Assembly (NCBI RefSeq): GCF_044324785.1
Contig: NZ_CP172127.1
Length of the DNA stretch: 64,000 nucleotides
Reading direction: 5' to 3' (one strand)
DNA from: Escherichia coli
Lineage (GTDB): Bacteria; Pseudomonadota; Gammaproteobacteria; Enterobacterales; Enterobacteriaceae
Under the pieces are notes generated by a model. It did not search any database. It was given only the letters and a program-made list of their open reading frames with translations, and was not told where the DNA came from. Made by a program: the position numbers and the translations under genes. Shown here piece by piece: positions 54,632 through 64,000 of this stretch (position 1 is its first letter; each line of letters starts with the position of its first letter).

Positions 54632-55828
54632 TCTGTTATTCTCCTGTATTATTACTTCACCAGCCAGAACGGTAGTGCGGAGCAAAAATACAGTGATAAG
54701 AATCCTCTTTTATTAATTTAATAATGCCAGGAATATTATTGTGTATAATATGCGCCCTCAATTTAAGCAGCAGAAAAGCAATGACGAGAAAATCATTAAA
54801 ATACATAAAGATAAAACATCATAACTATAATTATAATAAGCGCGCTTATTTTAGCATCTGAACATTTAAAGTACTGCTATCACAAAACAATAAAAATCCT
54901 GGGTAATATCTCTGATGATTGAATGAGAAATTCACGATGTCTGGTGAGAATTCTGTTCAAAACGAGGAATGCAGACATACATGTGGCAGGCATGGACTTC
55001 CACCGATTTAACTTTTTTCCTTCCTTGTATTTACACATCACACATTTTGCGCTACAAAAATTTCACGTGGCACGCACCACGTGATCCGTAGAAAAGCCTC
55101 TTGTTACGAATTTCGTAAACCGCACGTCTGTCTGGTCGTGCGGATTTTTTATCCGTCAACTTCACATGAAACCGCCAGATCACTGTTTCCGGATTCAGAC
55201 ATCAGGCATATTATCATCCACAATGTCGTGAACAAGATCACACTTTTGCAATTCCTTTATTGATCGAAAGCAGTTAATCACGGAAATTAATTACCGGAGT
55301 GAAAGCATTACTGCATCGTAAATATCTACCATTTTTGACTACACCCTCTGACAGAATTTTCAGAGGGTTTTTTATCAGTTTCACCATCCAACCCTGTACG
55401 CCAGAATGGTTTCACTGTCACTCAGTTCTGCTATTGCCTTTTTCATCTCCCTTTACCTTACGTTCTGCCAGAGTCTGAGCCATTTGAACAGGAGGTTATC
55501 ATTGATATCGTGTTCCCGGGCAATACGGGCAACAGAGGCTCCTGGTTGCAAAACCAGTTTAACCATTTGAAGTTTAACTCATTTGAAAATGATCTGCGGG
55601 GTTCTGCGGATAATGTTTTTGCTCCATAACAGGCGCCCACCAGTTTGAAAAGGTGGGCACCTACGTTACCAATACTGGCTTAATGGATACATACGGCGGT
55701 CGGTTCTTACGGTAAAACGACACAACCAAACGCTTCTTATCCTGCAATGAACTGCTTTATTACCGAGTTTAGTGACCGCACAGACACTCACTTTTAAGAA
55801 AAACAGAATGGTAAACAAACTCCATGAA

Positions 55829-56005
55829 TTACAATAGCTCTCTGGCTGCCGCCACAATAGCTTGCGCGGTTAACCCGTACTCTCTCTGTAAAAAGTCCTG
55901 AGTTTCAACCTGGCCATACCGCTCTTTAACCCCCACCCGACGCATGGGCACAGGACAAGTTTCTACAAGCACTTCAGCAACTGCTGAACCTAATCCATTA
56001 TGAAT
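55829..56005 (-). pseudogene. C-terminal fragment of a transketolase-family (C-terminal subunit) gene, truncated by the IS1-family element
   Basis: Minus-strand frame ...HNGLGSAVAEVLVETCPVPMRRVGVKERYGQVETQDFLQREYGLTAQAIVAAARELL-stop. Confidence 0.45.
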
Positions 56006-56780
56006 ACGGTAATGACTCCAATTAGTTGAATTAGGAGTATAATAGCCACTTTTAAGGTTCTTTCATGGTCACAGTTAACCTTCATTGCTCCTGTTGCCAG
56101 TCCGTTCAGGTTTACCGTCACGGGAAGAACCCAAAGGACATGATCGATTTCGCTGCCGTGACTGTCATCGAGTGCTTCAGCTCACTTACCGTTACGAGGC
56201 CCGTAAACCGGGAGTTAAAGAGCAAATCACTGAAATGGCTTTCAACGGTGCCGGAGTTCGCGATACTGCCCGTACGCTGAAAATCGGCATTAATACTGTC
56301 ATCCGGACTTTAAAAAACTCTCGCCACGAAGAATAACGTCATACCCGGTCGCTCATGCTGATATGGCACTCATCTGCGAACTTGATGAGCAATGGAGTTT
56401 TGTCGGCAGTAAAGCGCGACAGCACTGGCTCTGGTACACGTACAACACGAAAACTGGTGGCGTTCTGGCCTACACTTTTGGCCTACGGACTGATTAAACC
56501 TGTCGTGAATTGCTGGCGCTGCTTGCCCTTTTACCATCGGTATGTTGACCACTGACGAATGGGGTAGTTACACCAGAGAGTTACCGAAGGAGAAGCATCT
56601 GACTGGTAAGATTTTTACTCAGCGCATTGAGCGCAACATCTACCTCTGAGAACCCGAATCAAACGTCTGGCCCGCAGAACTATCTGTTTCACGCGCTCTG
56701 TAGAACTTCATGAAAAAGTCATCGGTGCCTTTATCGAAAAATATATGTTCTACTAATTGGAGTCACCACCTTCGTTTGTT
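56006..56780 (+). mobile_element. Degenerate IS1-family element (divergent IS1 relative), frameshifted insA/insB
   Basis: IS1-like terminal sequences at both ends (GGTAATGACTCCAATTAG... and ...CTAATTGGAGTCACCACC); InsA-like ORFs 56065..56336 (CRDCHRVLQLTYRYEARKPGVKEQITEMAFNGAGVRDTARTLKIGINTVIRTLKN) and InsB-like fragments (ICELDEQWSFVGSKARQHWLWYTYN). Confidence 0.6.
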
Positions 56781-57322
56781 TAAAGAACCTGCTGGTCCTG
56801 CCATTAATATTACCTGCTGATTGCTTCACATCCGGATTCCTCGCACTGCGCGCGGGTTATTGTTTCGTTTTCGGCCACGGGGTCGCCAGGGCTCTGTTTG
56901 CAGGCCATGATGGCCTGACCTGTACTGTTTCTCAGGCACTGAGATGTCCGTTTACGCCATTTGTTCCCGGATATCCTTAACCTCTGACGTTTGTTCCCTG
57001 CCCCTCTGTCTGATAACGAATACGCTCACAACGCACAGTACTGAACAATACCGACAACAACATGTCTTACATGAAATTCGCTGTAACATCCACCGGAAAA
57101 CATTTTCAGATATCGGATGAGGTACTACTTCCATTGACAGCGCGAGGTAACAAAATTGATGGTAACTCTGACCATTAACCGTAAACCGCAGGGTATTTTC
57201 AGTAAATCACCGGCAACGCCGCTGCAGAATAAAACGGACACAGCATACAAAATGAAGGCCGGTGACCAGATACCACAGTTGAACGATAAACAGAAACCTG
57301 CTGATAAAACACCGTGGCGACA

Positions 57323-57667
57323 TGACAAAACGCCAGAGCAAAAACCGTAAGCGCATTATTCGTCTTGTGGAACTCTGGCCTGAGTCATTCAACCGGGAAA
57401 AAAACAAAACCACTTAAAGTGGGGATACCTGACGACCTGATACAGGATATCGCCATCCGAGAACTGGCGTTTGGCGCTGGTACATTACATGCAGCAGTGG
57501 CGTCTTATGTGCAGTCTCCGCGCTATTACCGTGCGTTAATAGCAGGTGGCGCCCGTTACAACCTGAACGGTCAGCCGTGCGGGGAAGTGACACCACAGGA
57601 ACAGAAAGAGGCAGAGACCCGTTTAATGATGCTGAATGACCGACGAAAAGACAGAAAACCTCGTTGA
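57323..57667 (+). pseudogene. ProQ/FinO-domain RNA-binding protein gene, frameshifted after about 30 codons
   Basis: MTKRQSKNRKRIIRLVELWPESFNREKNKTT-stop, then in another frame PLKVGIPDDLIQDIAIRELAFGAGTLHAAVASYVQSPRYYRALIAGGARYNLNGQPCGEVTPQEQKEAE. Confidence 0.5.
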
Positions 57668-57684
57668 CTGCACAACAGCGCTGT

Positions 57685-58422
57685 TCACTGAGCTGTAATC
57701 AATGTACAGCGCTGTACCGGGCGATGGGTAATACCGGTCACAACCGGTAACCCCAGAGACAATGCAACTGTTTTTAACGCAATATACTGGCCGGATGTAT
57801 CACCCCGGGCAGCCTGAAAACACCTTTCCACCCGGCATTGTCCGTCAGCACTTATCACCCGCCATGTCTGTTGCAATAAATCCACCCGTTGCGAACATTC
57901 TTCATCAACCGTGGCACTGACCCGTGGATGGCAAATGCTCGTCTGGCTGAGCAGCAACAGGCATCGCATTGTTGCTCCTCCATGTTGTTCCCGCAACCAG
58001 CGTAATACCACCGGTGGTGCTGGACTGGCCGTGTGATTACGTTCAGTAATACGCTCGTGCACCTGTCGGTAAAAGGAAGTACAGAATGCATGAATCTGTT
58101 GTCCGTTGATGTTTCCTTCTGCCGAATGGAGTGTGAAGTGGACGGCCAGCAGACGCGGCCAGTGATCCACCGCCTGCTGAATAAAACGCCGGATTTCCAC
58201 CGGCTCTGAAAGTACGGTTTCGGTTATTTGCACGATTTGATCCCCTTGAATGTTGCTGAACCGGTGTCGGTACGCAGGAAAGCACGCCGAGACCGGTACG
58301 ATGCCTGTTACAGCGAAGAACGAGGAATGACAGACGGGGGCAGCAGGTCGCCAGCACCAGGGACAGGGCTGATTTCCACAATACCAACGCTGGTATTTTG
58401 CACATTGCCAGCGTACCGGCAT
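57685..58422 (-). CDS. Hypothetical island protein downstream of alpA (paralog fragment at 23000..23567)
   Basis: Track ORF 57685..58479 overlaps alpA, so the start is probably later; a second long ORF is open in another frame over the same DNA (57855..58091), so the frame is uncertain. Confidence 0.35.
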   Translation of the reverse strand: MPVRWQCAKYQRWYCGNQPCPWCWRPAAPVCHSSFFAVTGIVPVSACFPAYRHRFSNIQGDQIVQITETVLSEPVEIRRFIQQAVDHWPRLLAVHFTLHSAEGNINGQQIHAFCTSFYRQVHERITERNHTASPAPPVVLRWLREQHGGATMRCLLLLSQTSICHPRVSATVDEECSQRVDLLQQTWRVISADGQCRVERCFQAARGDTSGQYIALKTVALSLGLPVVTGITHRPVQRCTLITAQ

Positions 58423-58433
58423 TACAACACGTT

Positions 58434-58670
58434 TCATGCGGCGACTCCCCGTGATGCTTCGATGCGCTGCTGCATCCACTGCTCCACTTCGCTTCTGTAC
58501 CAGCGGCTGCTGCGGCCCAGTTTGATGGGTTTAGGGAAATGGCCTTCACTGATCAGCTTGTAAAACCATTTGTCGGTCATACCAGTGAAGCTGGTGATGT
58601 AGTTCATGTCGATCAGGGGATCGTCGGCACGCAGCAATACGCTGTCGTGACCTGTCATTGAGGTCAACAT
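58434..58670 (-). CDS. alpA: AlpA-family phage/island regulatory protein (HTH)
   Basis: ...MNYITSFTGMTDKWFYKLISEGHFPKPIKLGRSSRWYRSEVEQWMQQRIE, typical AlpA/Vis-type small DNA-binding protein. Confidence 0.7.
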   Translation of the reverse strand: MLTSMTGHDSVLLRADDPLIDMNYITSFTGMTDKWFYKLISEGHFPKPIKLGRSSRWYRSEVEQWMQQRIEASRGVAA

Positions 58671-58738
58671 GGTCAGAATGTCCTCTGTGAGATTTATGAA
58701 TGTTGGGCAAATGCGGGTGAATCTGCTGAGCTGAGCTT

Positions 58739-59341
58739 TCAGAGCTGGCCTGCTACGGGATACCAGGGATTACCGGCGAGGTAACGGGCTTCCGGATCGC
58801 GCACACCACGACGATCGCGGGCGAAATCACTGAACGCCCATATCAGCTCTTTGAGTCTCTCTTCGCAGTCCGGTGAACGGGGATCCAGCAGCACATCCCG
58901 GGTAATCTGCTTCTGGTACGGTGCCGCTTCACCCGGTGACGCGAAGCCCAGTACGTTGCTCCAGGCATCCAGAATCAGCCGATCCAGTTCAGGGCCGTCG
59001 AAATATTCCTCCCTGACGCACAGCACCACGTGGTATTCCGGTTTTTCAGGATGACGAGTCAGGAGCCAGCAGAGATCACGTCCGGGGGTTGCATTCATCA
59101 GCGCACTGACGGTTTCGATAAAGGCCATACCGAACCAGGTTTTTCTGTCGCTGAAGATGTTGCCATGTTCCCCCGGCAGACGAAGCAGGATCCGCCGTAT
59201 TCGGGAGCAGGGCTGCTCACGCAGCGCACGCTCAAGGACACCGATAACTTTGCTCTGATAAGATGGCCAGAAGGGCGCCATGCTATAGTCGAAATAAGGG
59301 ATAGCATTCATAAGATATGTTCCGTTATACGCAGCCCACAA
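58739..59341 (-). pseudogene. Inovirus-Gp2-like (YagK/YfjJ-family) gene, 5' end degenerate
   Basis: Contains KPEYHVVLCVREEYFDG (compare HYHVILLLNKDTW in the neighbour); the conserved upstream leader is present at 59471..59535 but the ATG after it is lost. Confidence 0.5.
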
Positions 59342-59667
59342 CGCGTCCTGCCCGTGGATGCGCTGACGTGTTATGGCTTGCGTATGGGGTTGATGGAATA
59401 AGTGAAAAACCGCGGCAGAACGGGAAGATCAGGTAACCGACAAGGGACAGAACACCGGATGCAGGTTCAGAATGAATGATCTCCGTTGACTTCGGTTCAC
59501 ATCATTAAGCAGGACAGTAAGGTTTTACCGACGGAGTGTTTCCAGGAGCGAAAGCAGAGAAAAATACCGTTGCATGACTTCAGGACGACTTTTTCAGAAA
59601 ACGAGCTAAGGGCGTCAGCCAACGTCCTGTAGCATAAGCTCAGGCACCGGATGTCGTTTTACAGGGC

Positions 59668-60399
59668 TCACCTGCCATCCAGTAGACGCCCCGGCCCACG
59701 ACTGCAACCATAATTACGTTGCCCGGAACCGTTATGCAACTTCGTTTCATATTTCACGAGATAACTGGCTCTGTTCCGGGCTTTCTGCATCGCTTCCACA
59801 TCACCACGCTTGACCCAGAGCACAGCGGATTCACCCGGCTTTTTGTCTGAAGCCTTCCTGGTATCAGAACATCCACCCGACAAAGGCGTATCATCGGAAG
59901 AAGGGCGAGCATCAGATGATGTCGGTTTACGGAAAGGCGTCCGCCTGGAAAAATGAACCAGTCCATTACCCTGCCAGGGCTCAAGATGCAGAGCACTACA
60001 CCATGCCAGCTTGATCAGTGTCGCCAGCGAAGAAGGAACGGTGAAATCCCCTGGCGAGCACCAGGTATCTTTGTTGAGCAGCAATATCACGTGATAATGT
60101 TTCCTGCCTTTTTCCTTGCCAAACTCCCGGCACCAGAAATAACGCAGAGTGGTTGCACGCACACGCTTGTTGGCACGTCGTTTTTTCCGCTGGTAAGCCT
60201 GAATTTTGGCTTTCAGGGATGCAAAAAAACGAGAAATCACCGCTGAATCCGGATCGGGATCCATGATGGTGACAGGCATATACTCAGGGAAACGTAAATC
60301 CACCCGGATTAACGAGACGGCACGGTGCTGCGCCAGGGCACTGTCGAGAAGGCTGTCAAAACGGGATAACCAGTAAGCATTATGTATTGGTTGATTCAT
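59668..60399 (-). CDS. Inovirus-Gp2-like (YagK/YfjJ-family) protein
   Basis: 243-aa ORF with RBS GGAGAT 10 bp before the ATG; motif RKHYHVILLLNKDTW typical of this island-associated family. Confidence 0.65.
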   Translation of the reverse strand: MNQPIHNAYWLSRFDSLLDSALAQHRAVSLIRVDLRFPEYMPVTIMDPDPDSAVISRFFASLKAKIQAYQRKKRRANKRVRATTLRYFWCREFGKEKGRKHYHVILLLNKDTWCSPGDFTVPSSLATLIKLAWCSALHLEPWQGNGLVHFSRRTPFRKPTSSDARPSSDDTPLSGGCSDTRKASDKKPGESAVLWVKRGDVEAMQKARNRASYLVKYETKLHNGSGQRNYGCSRGPGRLLDGR

Positions 60400-61319
60400 G
60401 ATGAGAGATCTCCGTTGATTTGGATTGACTTCACATCATTAATCACCGCAGTAAAACTTTACGGCGTCCTGTCATTAAGCAACACCAGTGGCTCCTGATT
60501 AGAACAGAATGAGTTTCCCACGAACAAAAAGACAAACCTACACGCAGGGTAAAAACACGCAACAACAGCATGAATGGATTTGAAAACAATATGGATGACG
60601 AAAAATGTCAAAAGTGAAACGGATCAACAGAACGTGCAAACAAAACGTCAGAAACGCAATCAGAGCACTTTCTGGCGCTGTGAATCAACAACAACACCAA
60701 AACCTACAGCTTAACCACATTACTCAATCACGAATGCGAATGACACGTTTAAAACCTGTTTACAGATAACGCCGTAACACGATCATCCCCATCACCATCA
60801 GAATCGATTTTCTCATCCCGAAAATGTTACGTTTCACTACGCACCATAAAAACGATTAACCATCGATAACGTAAATCTCATCTGAATCAAAAAACCAAAA
60901 CCAATCATCACACTTTCGCAATGCAAGAAGAAAAACCACATCATGACGAAAACAATGACCTTACATGAAAAAGCAAAACGTCAGGAATCGTTAATGCCTC
61001 AATCTGATTGTTATCAAAACATCCAGAAAGTCGTTTAACAGAATCGTCGTAAGCACATCGAAAAGAACGTCAGATCACCTCAGGAAAGTTCGGGTTGATT
61101 TAGCGTAAAGATACTTTTCTCAGCTTAACGTCGAAACACAAACCAAAAACCACAAACAACCAAAGCTCAGGAAAGGTTAAACGTCACATCAGTAAAATCG
61201 AATAGCAGATTGATTGCTTAAACAGAAAGGTTTTACAGCAGCTTTAAACTGATTTTAGCTAACGTAAAGATTTACTAAACTGGATGAGTTTCAGACAAAG
61301 CAATGTGTACAGCAATGCT

Positions 61320-61500
61320 TAATGAAAACACTTATAGGGCTGTTTATGAAAACACGTGTATGTCTGGTAAAACACTTAGTAGAAAATACGTGTATAACAC
61401 TTACTGAAATGCTTAGTAAAAATACTTAGTAAAATATGTGTAGAATTATCTATTTAAAAAGATATGTATATAACACTTAATAAAAACATGTGTATATAGT
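61320..61500. repeat. Cluster of short direct repeats and palindromes (iteron-like)
   Basis: AACACTTA(G/C)T at about 61323, 61367, 61403, 61468; CTTAGTAAAA at 61371, 61410, 61423; palindromes ACACGTGT (61349), ATACGTGTAT (61385), ACATGT (61485). Confidence 0.4.
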
Positions 61501-62138
61501 ATCATACCGACATTCTCAACATCTTCAGACTTCCATACATACTGGGTGTTGATTTCTCACTTTTACAGCCAGCATGGAGTTTTCTGTCCTAAAAACAGAG
61601 CAGATTTACTCTGGAATTATTTTTCTGCCCCCGTATTTCAGGCCCCAGAAAAGACAATCCGAAGCAAACCGTTTGTCAGCCTCCATATCATCTTTTACCC
61701 CCGGAAAGTGATCGCGTTTTACAACCAGAATGACAGCCATACTGATTATGTCGTCTCCCGGCCCCCTTCACATATAACATGCATGTCTGTCATTGCTTAC
61801 TGCTCCACATGACCGGATTTCACATACAGGATGCACATTCAGTGTTTTTATCGCCACTATAACAGACAGATTACTGTCGTCTTTACTCTTCAGATTGTTA
61901 ATCTGACCACAAGAACAGCCGAACGGCAAAACGCCCTCCACAAGGGGCACATGAACCATAGTTGATAGCATGTTTTTCCTAATCAAGGAATAGTTCAGGA
62001 ATATTTTATTGCATTAATAACTGGCGAATAATCGTTCTGTGAACACAAAATGCTTTTATTTGTAAATTTTATTGCATTGCACTCGTTTTATTGATATGGG
62101 GTTTAATAACAGATAACCCGGAAAGAAGGAGAAAACAG

Positions 62139-62930
62139 ATGACATTACGGATTAACGATCAGGGGCGAGATAAACAGAATCAATTTTTATCGAAAAATGG
62201 AGAAAATCTGAATTCGTTAAAATCGCGTCATGTGCAGGATAGGCATTTACCTGAATGGCTTAAGGATAAAGTTGCAGCATTCTGGTTTTGTCTGGTGATA
62301 AAGGATATGAAAGTGTCAGGGAGCAGTTACTATGAACTTACCATGCAACTTCCCACTTCTGAAGAATCTGTTTGCATCAGTAAGCTGTCATCCTCAACCC
62401 ATGAGATTCGGCTGGAGATCATCAGGCGATGGATTGATAGTGTAGCACAGATAGAAACGGAAGCTTTTACTAAAAATCTCGTTGATGCCATCTATAAAAA
62501 CTGGAAGGAAATCGGGAACAAAAACCAGGCTACATGGCTTAAAAAAAATCCGGAACAACTCGAGTGGGCATGGAAATATATTAACATTCGTATTCCCGAG
62601 TCACATTTAACCTGGTTTTGCCCCGTCAATAACGAAGAGAAACGCATTGCCATCTTAGCATTGCTTAAAATACTGTATCCCGGAGATATACCATGCCAGT
62701 ACAACGACAAAGAGTTTCATGTCGGGATCTGCGCTGAAGAACATTTTTACAGAAGAATGCACGACGCTTTCAGAAAACAGTTTATCGACGGGAAAAAAGA
62801 TAAACGGGTACAAATTAACGTAAAGATATCACCGTCCGCAAAAAGCGCTCTGGACAGACTGACCAGAGCGAGGAAAACAACACAGCAGGCTATTCTGGAA
62901 CAACTGATTCTGAACGGTAGACTGGATTAA
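62139..62930 (+). CDS. Hypothetical protein, 263 aa, with a possible ribbon-helix-helix-like C-terminus
   Basis: RBS AAGGAGA 7 bp before the ATG at 62139 (track ORF starts at 62091); C-terminal ...VQINVKISPSAKSALDRLTRARKTTQQAILEQLIL. Confidence 0.45.
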   Translation: MTLRINDQGRDKQNQFLSKNGENLNSLKSRHVQDRHLPEWLKDKVAAFWFCLVIKDMKVSGSSYYELTMQLPTSEESVCISKLSSSTHEIRLEIIRRWIDSVAQIETEAFTKNLVDAIYKNWKEIGNKNQATWLKKNPEQLEWAWKYINIRIPESHLTWFCPVNNEEKRIAILALLKILYPGDIPCQYNDKEFHVGICAEEHFYRRMHDAFRKQFIDGKKDKRVQINVKISPSAKSALDRLTRARKTTQQAILEQLILNGRLD

Positions 62931-63928
62931 CTTTCACTACTTCCACTCCTGGCAGTTTTCCTCTTTTTGTAGTGTCTCCCGGCTGCAGGCATCAGGTACT
63001 TTTCCGTCATTTCGTTGCAGAACTCTTCAATGTAGTTAATCAGCTTCTGGTGTGCTTTCACCTTTTCTTCCCCGGGGGACGCTTTCAGATAAATGTCCTC
63101 CTTTTCCACAAGTGTATTTATAAACTCTCCCGGACATCCCTGGTTATAAAGCAACGTGAAAAACAACACATTCCCCAGTCTCTCCAGTAACTGCGATTTA
63201 ACCCTGTATTGTTGTTTGCTGAGGATTGATTGTTTTATAAAGCTTAGTCTTGTTAAAAGTTGTTCAAATCCCGGTTCCAGTTTAAAAACAGATTTTAATA
63301 CCAGGGACTGATACTCCTGATAAAAAAGTTCAAACGTCGGGGATGCAGACTGACGAACAGATTTGGCTACAACCCATGGACTAAATCCCATGATTGGGAT
63401 TTCCTTCGCTCCCTCCAGCGCACTCAGAGGTAGTCCAGCAATCCATGCGTCCAGCTTAGCCGAATCAATATCCCCGCTCAAAACCTCATACAAACTGCCC
63501 GTGAACGGTTGAGTCGGTTTTTTTGTTGTTTTACCTTCTGATTGCCTGAATCCATCCACTTTTCTCCGGATATTACGCGGAATCAGCATAAAAGGCGGGA
63601 CATTAAGTGATAAACGTTTACCCGTCATACGATACCAGTGGCCCACCTCAACCTTAATCCGTGTATCTGGCCTTGTATCTGGCCTTGTATCTGGCCTTAG
63701 CTCAAGTGCTATTATGTTAAGCAGGTACAGATAACGCACCGTATAACAGTCAAAATGTTTCTCCGGATCAAACGGCTCTGATCGTTCTCTGCACACAAGT
63801 CCGCTGCGCTTCAGTATTCGCTGGGTATCTTTCCAGGCCTTACTCTGAAGAATGGTGGTAACTCTGGCTTTATTAGCAATCTCACGCAGCGCATCACTTT
63901 GTTGTGCCGTCATCTCTTCCCTCCACAC
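62927..63928 (-). CDS. Hypothetical protein, 333 aa, with an internal RPDT tandem repeat
   Basis: Long ORF convergent with and overlapping the previous gene by 4 bp; contains a 12-bp x3 DNA tandem repeat encoding RPDTRPDTRPDTR. Confidence 0.5.
   Translation of the reverse strand: MWREEMTAQQSDALREIANKARVTTILQSKAWKDTQRILKRSGLVCRERSEPFDPEKHFDCYTVRYLYLLNIIALELRPDTRPDTRPDTRIKVEVGHWYRMTGKRLSLNVPPFMLIPRNIRRKVDGFRQSEGKTTKKPTQPFTGSLYEVLSGDIDSAKLDAWIAGLPLSALEGAKEIPIMGFSPWVVAKSVRQSASPTFELFYQEYQSLVLKSVFKLEPGFEQLLTRLSFIKQSILSKQQYRVKSQLLERLGNVLFFTLLYNQGCPGEFINTLVEKEDIYLKASPGEEKVKAHQKLINYIEEFCNEMTEKYLMPAAGRHYKKRKTARSGSSES
63663..63698. repeat. 12-bp tandem repeat x3 (GTATCTGGCCTT) inside the 62927..63928 ORF
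   Basis: Three exact head-to-tail copies. Confidence 0.9.
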
Positions 63929-64000
63929 TTTGTCACTCCAGATTTTTTCACGTCCATATTACCTGAATGATAAACCGGATTAGTGTGATCCGGTTCAGCG

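Follow-up and report, generated by a model that had tools for sequence, protein, structure and literature searches.

The DNA analysed here is a 64 000 nt stretch from Escherichia coli (contig NZ_CP172127.1; hereafter the window). The region considered here matches a chromosomal island of E. coli GF60 at 100% identity and is present in thousands of E. coli genomes. Genes for a GTPase, a DUF932 protein, an antirestriction protein, RadC and a YeeU/CbtA toxin-antitoxin pair lie in the neighbourhood, which indicates a CP4-type integrative island. Such islands carry defence and virulence cargo, and at their core is the regulatory/replication-like module considered here. On the minus strand, its order is a non-coding block (L1), a YagK/YfjJ ('inovirus Gp2') gene (Gp2-243), a second copy of the block (L2), a spacer of ~160 nt, open reading frame 2 (ORF2), a gene encoding an AlpA-like helix-turn-helix protein, and ORF4. 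The combination of a Gp2-like gene, ORF2 and the AlpA gene is found in 1872–1910 of 5426 complete E. coli genomes, about a third.

The first gene, Gp2-243 (59668..60399, minus strand), encodes a canonical YagK/YfjJ protein of 243 aa, as indicated by Pfam, PHROG, alignment and the PGAP annotation. It scores 123.7 bits against Pfam PF11726 (gathering cut-off 25.8; E 9.8e-36; residues 23–233), which places it in the family, and it also matches PF23343 at 5.4e-10 and PHROG replication-initiator profiles. An HUH motif, HYH (KHYHVILLLN), and a tyrosine motif, YLVK (RASYLVK), are both conserved across the family alignment, and the protein thus has the sequence signature of an HUH protein. By these motifs, Gp2-243 is a canonical HUH/Rep-like YagK/YfjJ protein. 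Its PF23343 and PHROG matches, and its HUH and Y-x-x-K motifs, are shared features with HUH endonucleases such as rolling-circle Rep proteins, parvovirus NS1, the origin-binding domain of adeno-associated virus Rep and TnpA-REP. It is a clear member of the family represented in E. coli K-12 by the YagK/YfjJ proteins of CP4-6 and CP4-57, and, as in CP4-57, the Gp2-like gene adjoins an AlpA-family gene. Unlike the K-12 proteins, Gp2-243 contains a low-complexity insertion of ~45 aa (within 59754–59996), which is also absent from relatives of 189–208 aa. Many of its database homologues are 214-aa variants that switch to an alternative frame within the insertion stretch, and this frame is also open in the window (an 80-aa ORF).

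ORF2 (58739..59311, minus strand) encodes 190 aa from an ATG at 59311 and is annotated by PGAP as a hypothetical protein. The initial annotation regarded it as the decaying second copy of a tandem Gp2 duplication, which had lost its start codon and opened only 130 bp after a motif shared by the two genes. Homologues, signs of selection and profile comparison all contradict this. A search of 5.8 billion proteins identified 62 homologues, all from E. coli; each of the 62 begins with MNAIPYF or MNGIPHF and none has an N-terminal extension. The ATG, ~160 nt past the block, is therefore the start used by all homologues. It has its own ribosome-binding region, AACGGA(A/G)CATATCTTATG, and the ATG and the preceding 20 nt (AACGGAGCATATCTT) are nearly invariant in 11 diverged islands. 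The frame is intact across all 190 aa in 11 of 11 loci. The pairwise ratio of non-synonymous to synonymous divergence (dN/dS) is ~0.23 at dS 0.15–0.5, in the range of the Gp2 genes (0.18–0.28), and ORF2 does not qualify as a pseudogene.

The description of the two genes as Gp2-like paralogs survives at the level of remote homology. ORF2 gives no match to PF11726 even at E<=10, and so lies outside the curated family, and it has no Pfam, NCBIfam or PHROG match. BLASTP of ORF2 against Gp2-243 gives E 0.026, and the proteins are ~17% identical. Comparison of the ORF2 and YagK/YfjJ families by hhalign, however, gives 91.6% probability (E 8.4e-7), colinear over 153 columns, with the match running from ORF2 residue 13 to family residue 5. 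In addition, when 1.8 billion cluster representatives were scanned in full with HMMER, two distant relatives of full length emerged, P0196 and P0202, both from other taxa. P0196 bridges the families, with matches to the ORF2 profile (1.2e-18) and to PF11726 (1.4e-10; 41.8 bits, above threshold). Both relatives place the family N terminus at the ORF2 ATG, as hhalign does. On these profile comparisons, ORF2 and Gp2-243 are homologous only at a remote level, within the YagK/YfjJ superfamily.

Joint alignment of the two subfamilies reveals that the canonical K-H-Y-H-V and (A/S)-Y-L-A-K motifs correspond to E/C/F-Y-H and S-D-F/M-A-R-D in the ORF2 subfamily. ORF2 itself reads PEYHVV, with E in place of the first HUH histidine (its relatives have CYH and FYH), and SDFARD at the YLAK position, with no tyrosine. 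It therefore lacks the motifs of an HUH endonuclease, and differs in both residues from K-12 YagK/YfjJ; ORF2 and ORF4 are also too divergent from these to be recognized by Pfam. An AlphaFold2 model of ORF2 (mean predicted local distance difference test score 80.5) finds its best fold matches, which are weak, among HUH nucleases and origin-binding domains. The protein probably binds DNA as a non-catalytic derivative. Taken with the conserved start and the dN/dS values, the comparisons identify it as an ancient, full-length, selectively maintained Gp2-family paralog with its own start and ribosome-binding region. The annotation of the 'hypothetical' 190-aa protein can thus be corrected to that of a divergent HUH/Rep-like paralog without the HUH and Tyr motifs.

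The L1 block (60397..60470, minus strand) is the leader directly 5' of Gp2-243. In five less-diverged loci, the final ~75 nt hardly vary, and the sequence further upstream diverges. It comprises the inverted repeat GTAA-AGTT-TTAC (60462–60451), TTAATGATGTGAA (60442–60430), a Shine-Dalgarno (SD) sequence GGAG (60412–60409) and, 10 nt on, the ATG of Gp2-243 (60399–60397); the motif does, as originally described, supply the ribosome-binding site of the first copy. The L2 block (59473..59552, minus strand), defined by alignment to L1 and by conservation among 11 islands, contains CGGTAA-AACC-TTACTG, TTAATGATGTGAA (59508–59496) and an SD-like GGAG (59484–59481). Just 3' of the block is a CTG (59470–59468), which aligns with the L1 ATG. 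The similarity between the blocks extends over ~68 nt (60462–60395 and 59528–59466), at 77–79% identity with one 5-nt indel. The local alignment score is 28, compared with 8.5 +/- 1.3 (maximum 16) in 2000 dinucleotide shuffles (z=15). The shared leader motif is thus real and longer than first reported. Its minus-strand copies were correctly recognized, although they lie at 60407..60442 and 59478..59508, a shift of 1–4 nt from the positions originally given. Within the window, the motif halves TTAATGATGTGAA and TCAACGGAGATC are found at these two sites only. The block is ~75–80 nt long, non-coding and unannotated in RefSeq records, and inspection of both strands found no conserved small ORFs in the block or the spacer.

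Divergence of L2, the spacer and ORF2 was measured pairwise across the 11 diverged E. coli islands. For L2 (59552–59474) it is 0.093 overall, falling to 0.02 at 59492–59473, with a range of 0.02–0.09 in the core. For the spacer it is 0.245, with many frame-shifting indels, which is similar to dS in ORF2. The L2 block is therefore 3–10 times more conserved than the ~160 nt behind it and, by this measure, is under detectable purifying selection. The suggestion that the leader is a regulatory site gains from this constraint, which makes a regulatory role likely. Differences specific to L1 and to L2 are fixed in every island examined, which argues that the similarity of the blocks is not kept by ongoing conversion.

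Comparison of islands also reveals two types in E. coli upstream of L2. In one, Gp2-243 is preceded by L1; in the other, L1 is missing and a Gp2-type gene of 188 aa, unrelated to Gp2-243, takes this position. The two types become homologous precisely at the 5' boundary of L2 (59546–59555). Breakpoints at such edges are typical of regulatory junctions in mosaic mobile elements. In the islands with the 188-aa gene, L2 is kept although L1 is absent nearby, and it begins only ~25 nt past the upstream stop codon, which makes co-transcription likely.

The spacer between L2 and ORF2 (59312..59472, minus strand) is identified as non-coding by its indels, divergence and variable phase, and evolves at about the neutral (synonymous) rate. 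Two spacer types occur among the islands, with indels of 12, 13, 14 and 2 nt. The distance from the block to the ORF2 ATG is 160, 171, 172 or 197 nt depending on the island, and all three phases are represented. No DNA similarity was found between the spacer and the 5' coding sequence of Gp2-243, Gp2-188, ORF2 or ORF4, and this, together with the variable phase, rules out the spacer as a decayed Gp2 N-terminal coding region. In the window, the CTG at 59470 shares its frame with ORF2, from which one TGA (59431–59429) separates it, and the total span is 732 nt, the length of the first copy. Since the block-to-ATG distance takes all three phases elsewhere, this agreement is a coincidence of the present allele. 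The ORF2 frame is free of stops for 39–67 codons 5' of the true ATG in 14 of 14 loci examined (59312–59431 in the window); in some loci it extends to an in-frame ATG within L2, and the peptides are not conserved and their phase varies. RefSeq also records a 49-aa antisense 'hypothetical protein' in the spacer of islands L005 (3732–3881) and L007 (3601–3750), equivalent to ~59317–59436 on the plus strand of the window. Because the spacer is neutral and contains frame-shifting indels, this call is probably spurious.

The genes and the block differ in age. The leaders align at the identity given above, and no DNA similarity above shuffles was found between the Gp2-243 and ORF2 coding sequences. 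In other taxa, a canonical or 188-aa-type gene is paired with an ORF2-like gene across a gap of 46 nt with no block, which indicates that the paralogs are old. The block itself has a narrow distribution. An exact-pattern scan of 100 044 species-representative genomes found it in one Enterobacteriaceae metagenome-assembled contig, and the same scan of a viral collection in one contig. Similarity searching with the L2 region returned five E. coli records from a plasmid collection, and a phage collection gave only a weak 263-nt match, within the Gp2 coding region. Neither K-12 yfjJ and yagK nor the Gp2 homologues in Brenneria and Providencia have the block upstream, and the ORF2-like relatives lack it; a block profile run with nhmmer against all fetched loci recovered L1 and L2 only. 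A 12-nt identity, GTAAAGTTTTAC, upstream of Providencia alpA, and GTAA-N4-TTAC before the 188-aa-type Gp2 gene, are not significant alone (E 4.5–5.7).

The block is thus specific to the E. coli lineage, to which it is essentially confined in these collections. Because block-less gene pairs exist in other taxa and the block is essentially confined to E. coli, its copying is much younger than the gene duplication. Coding sequences without DNA similarity, behind leaders that are ~78% identical, contradict a joint duplication of leader and gene, as had been proposed for the tandem pair. By these comparisons, the block was copied alone within the E. coli lineage, long after the genes had diverged.

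The conservation and position of the block suggest that the Gp2-243 and ORF2–alpA units share a leader that controls them in cis and is read by a module-encoded factor. This is the account that we tentatively favour, and we regard it as moderately probable. One common factor, an AlpA-like or Rep-like protein, would read the block as an operator and/or a 5' leader, and the shared block would put the two units under the same control. In L1, the block also carries the ribosome-binding site and could fold to hide the SD sequence and AUG; the L1 RNA has a predicted hairpin over both (-23.1 kcal/mol, z -2.8). In L2, conservation of the sequence would serve the common factor, and ORF2 never started at the 'missing' ATG. 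Paralogs with a common control region are frequent in mobile elements. As in operator or leader regions at the module junctions of mosaic elements, a short conserved non-coding block stands before two transcription units, at a breakpoint of homology. Unlike in those, the regulator, promoter and binding site here are putative, and the block appears in neither Rfam nor the RefSeq annotation.

Several observations weigh against a shared control leader. The L2 RNA folds no better than shuffled sequence (z ~0). None of 19 predicted L2 pairs covaries and several variants break pairs, although the sequences are too invariant for this to be informative. A sigma-70 scan (-35/-10 elements, 16–18 nt spacing, at least 9/12 matches) found no minus-strand site in either block, and the best conserved promoter candidate from a relaxed scan projected onto the alignment, GTAAA(A/G)-N16-AATGAT, matches at 7/12. 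No relevant Rfam 15 match was obtained in 55000–64000 at E<=1; the sole match is a chance PhotoRC-I hit inside the Gp2 coding sequence (19.9 bits, threshold 45). Both blocks carry the small inverted repeat GTAA-N4-TTAC, which recurs in front of the 188-aa-type gene and of Providencia alpA. Its 3' arm varies, which weakens a model of symmetric-dimer binding. The constrained SD-like GGAG in L2, with no start codon behind it, stays unaccounted for. The trans-acting factor, the transcription start site and the binding site at the block are postulates, and catalysis by the HUH and Tyr motifs is assumed for YagK/YfjJ by analogy with HUH endonucleases generally. A literature search found no functional study of YagK/YfjJ. 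The Pseudomonas aeruginosa antiterminator AlpA is a larger protein, with helix-turn-helix residues numbered 128–142, and binds the element GGGACG; this element is absent from the block.

The main rivals are a block that acts at the RNA level only and a block recognized as a site by an HUH/Rep protein. In the first, the block would be a leader for a small RNA or an RNA-binding protein, such as the product of the adjacent ProQ/FinO gene, controlling translation or stability of both messages. We consider this possible, though on balance unlikely. The L1 hairpin that hides the ribosome-binding site and AUG is consistent with it, as are the capacity of an anti-SD sequence in L2, CUCCGU, to pair with ACGGAG, the membership of the ProQ/FinO gene in the conserved module, and the likely co-transcription of L2 in the 188-aa-type islands. 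However, the folding and covariation results for L2 count against control by RNA structure, the ProQ-like gene is frameshifted here and in many islands, scans found no antisense promoter or terminator, and the block belongs to no Rfam family. There is some resemblance to FinP/FinO antisense control in F-like plasmids, in that a leader with a ribosome-binding site is predicted to be structured and a ProQ/FinO-family gene is present in the module. In contrast to that system, scans detected no antisense promoter, terminator or RNA gene, and the ProQ-like gene is a pseudogene here; the likeness is a resemblance only.

Alternatively, the block could be an origin, nick, termination or operator site of a Rep-like system, in which an active HUH protein, Gp2-243, is coupled to a catalytically dead ORF2 regulator or partner, and the stretch between the two copies, which are ~930 bp apart and enclose Gp2-243, forms a rolling-circle unit. 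The motifs of Gp2-243 (HUH and Tyr) and its matches to replication-initiator profiles fit such a role, the blocks are direct repeats flanking this gene, each contains a short inverted repeat, and the predicted fold of ORF2 weakly matches origin-binding domains. If this were true, the Rep-like pair would control island replication or mobilization and AlpA-dependent excision in very common E. coli defence and virulence islands. We judge it distinctly unlikely. Not one of the 5426 genomes contains an 'empty site', in which one block alone would directly follow the sequence that lies upstream of L1, and insertion or excision of a cassette at the block was rejected on this basis. Islands with the 188-aa Gp2-type gene carry L2 alone. 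The block, which had been considered as a filamentous-phage plus-strand origin or nick site, has no similarity to the M13 plus-strand origin beyond shuffles. It also overlaps the ribosome-binding site of the first copy, to which control of expression is at least an equally good fit.

L2 could also have no function and be left over, as an orphaned ribosome-binding region, from a gene that was lost; its conservation would then be only apparent, through recent spread or gene conversion. The spacing of SD, 10 nt and CTG in L2 is that of SD, 10 nt and ATG in L1, and a similar ribosome-binding region is present at ORF4. This is nevertheless very improbable: in the same 11 islands, the spacer and the synonymous sites of ORF2 have diverged by 0.2–0.5 and the block core by 0.02–0.09, the fixed L1/L2 differences speak against ongoing conversion, and L2 is retained where no L1 is nearby. 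The weakest explanation, in which a leader and Gp2 gene were duplicated in tandem and loss of the ATG left the second copy to decay into a pseudogene, could draw on the CTG aligned with the L1 ATG and on its frame, which enters ORF2 past a single TGA in a span as long as the first copy, but is barely credible given the conserved ORF2 start and ribosome-binding region, the dN/dS, the family N terminus at that ATG, the block-to-ATG distances in all three phases, the lack of similarity between the spacer and any paralog, and the dissimilar coding DNA behind similar leaders.

These results are a modest, incremental refinement, at the level of annotation, of a common and poorly studied island module. 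They place an unannotated block of ~80 nt under selection before two genes, and add a probable third paralog following alpA. The block, the AlpA-like protein and the paralog pair provide handles on how such islands are switched on.

The AlpA-family gene (58434..58670, minus strand) encodes a helix-turn-helix protein of 78 aa that matches Pfam PF05930 at 2.9e-10; within the module, this gene is the partner conserved on the downstream side. Islands across Enterobacterales, including those of Brenneria, Providencia and metagenomic contigs, retain the pair of a YagK/YfjJ-like gene and, after it, an AlpA-like gene. The canonical gene directly precedes alpA, with no ORF2 between, in Brenneria, Providencia and several metagenomic contigs. 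On one side, the YagK/YfjJ–AlpA pair is usually flanked by genes for DUF932, antirestriction and RadC proteins, and on the other by defence cargo (TIR, GmrSD, restriction-modification, WYL).

Downstream of the Gp2-243 stop codon, a hairpin, AGGACGT-TGGCTG-ACGCCCT, with a U-rich tail can be read from the sequence (59609..59628, minus strand). Its stem is perfect in island L005 (AAGGGCGT/ACGCCCTT). A terminator scan did not report it; it could act as a weak terminator between Gp2-243 and the ORF2–alpA unit. Upstream of L1, a 1.6 kb region (60500–62090) is AT-rich (27–41% GC) and poor in ORFs. It includes a terminator-like hairpin on the minus strand (60572–60556) and, in some genomes, a 57-aa plus-strand ORF called by PGAP. 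No promoter for Gp2-243 was located in the sequence upstream of L1.

ORF4 (57685..58233, minus strand) starts with GTG, encodes 182 aa and is annotated as 'hypothetical'. It has no Pfam match, but is 73% identical to a RefSeq 'YagK/YfjJ domain-containing' protein, and its comparison with the YagK/YfjJ family by hhalign is weak but colinear (E 0.0019). ORF4 is thus a probable third paralog of the YagK/YfjJ-like kind, in a highly degenerate form. The ribosome-binding region of this gene, TTCAAGGGGATCAAATCGTG, is similar to the 3' end of the block. Converging on the module from the plus strand is the ProQ/FinO-family gene (57159–57667), which is frameshifted in the window. The frameshift state is shared by many other islands, and the gene is intact in at least one (L006, 480 nt).

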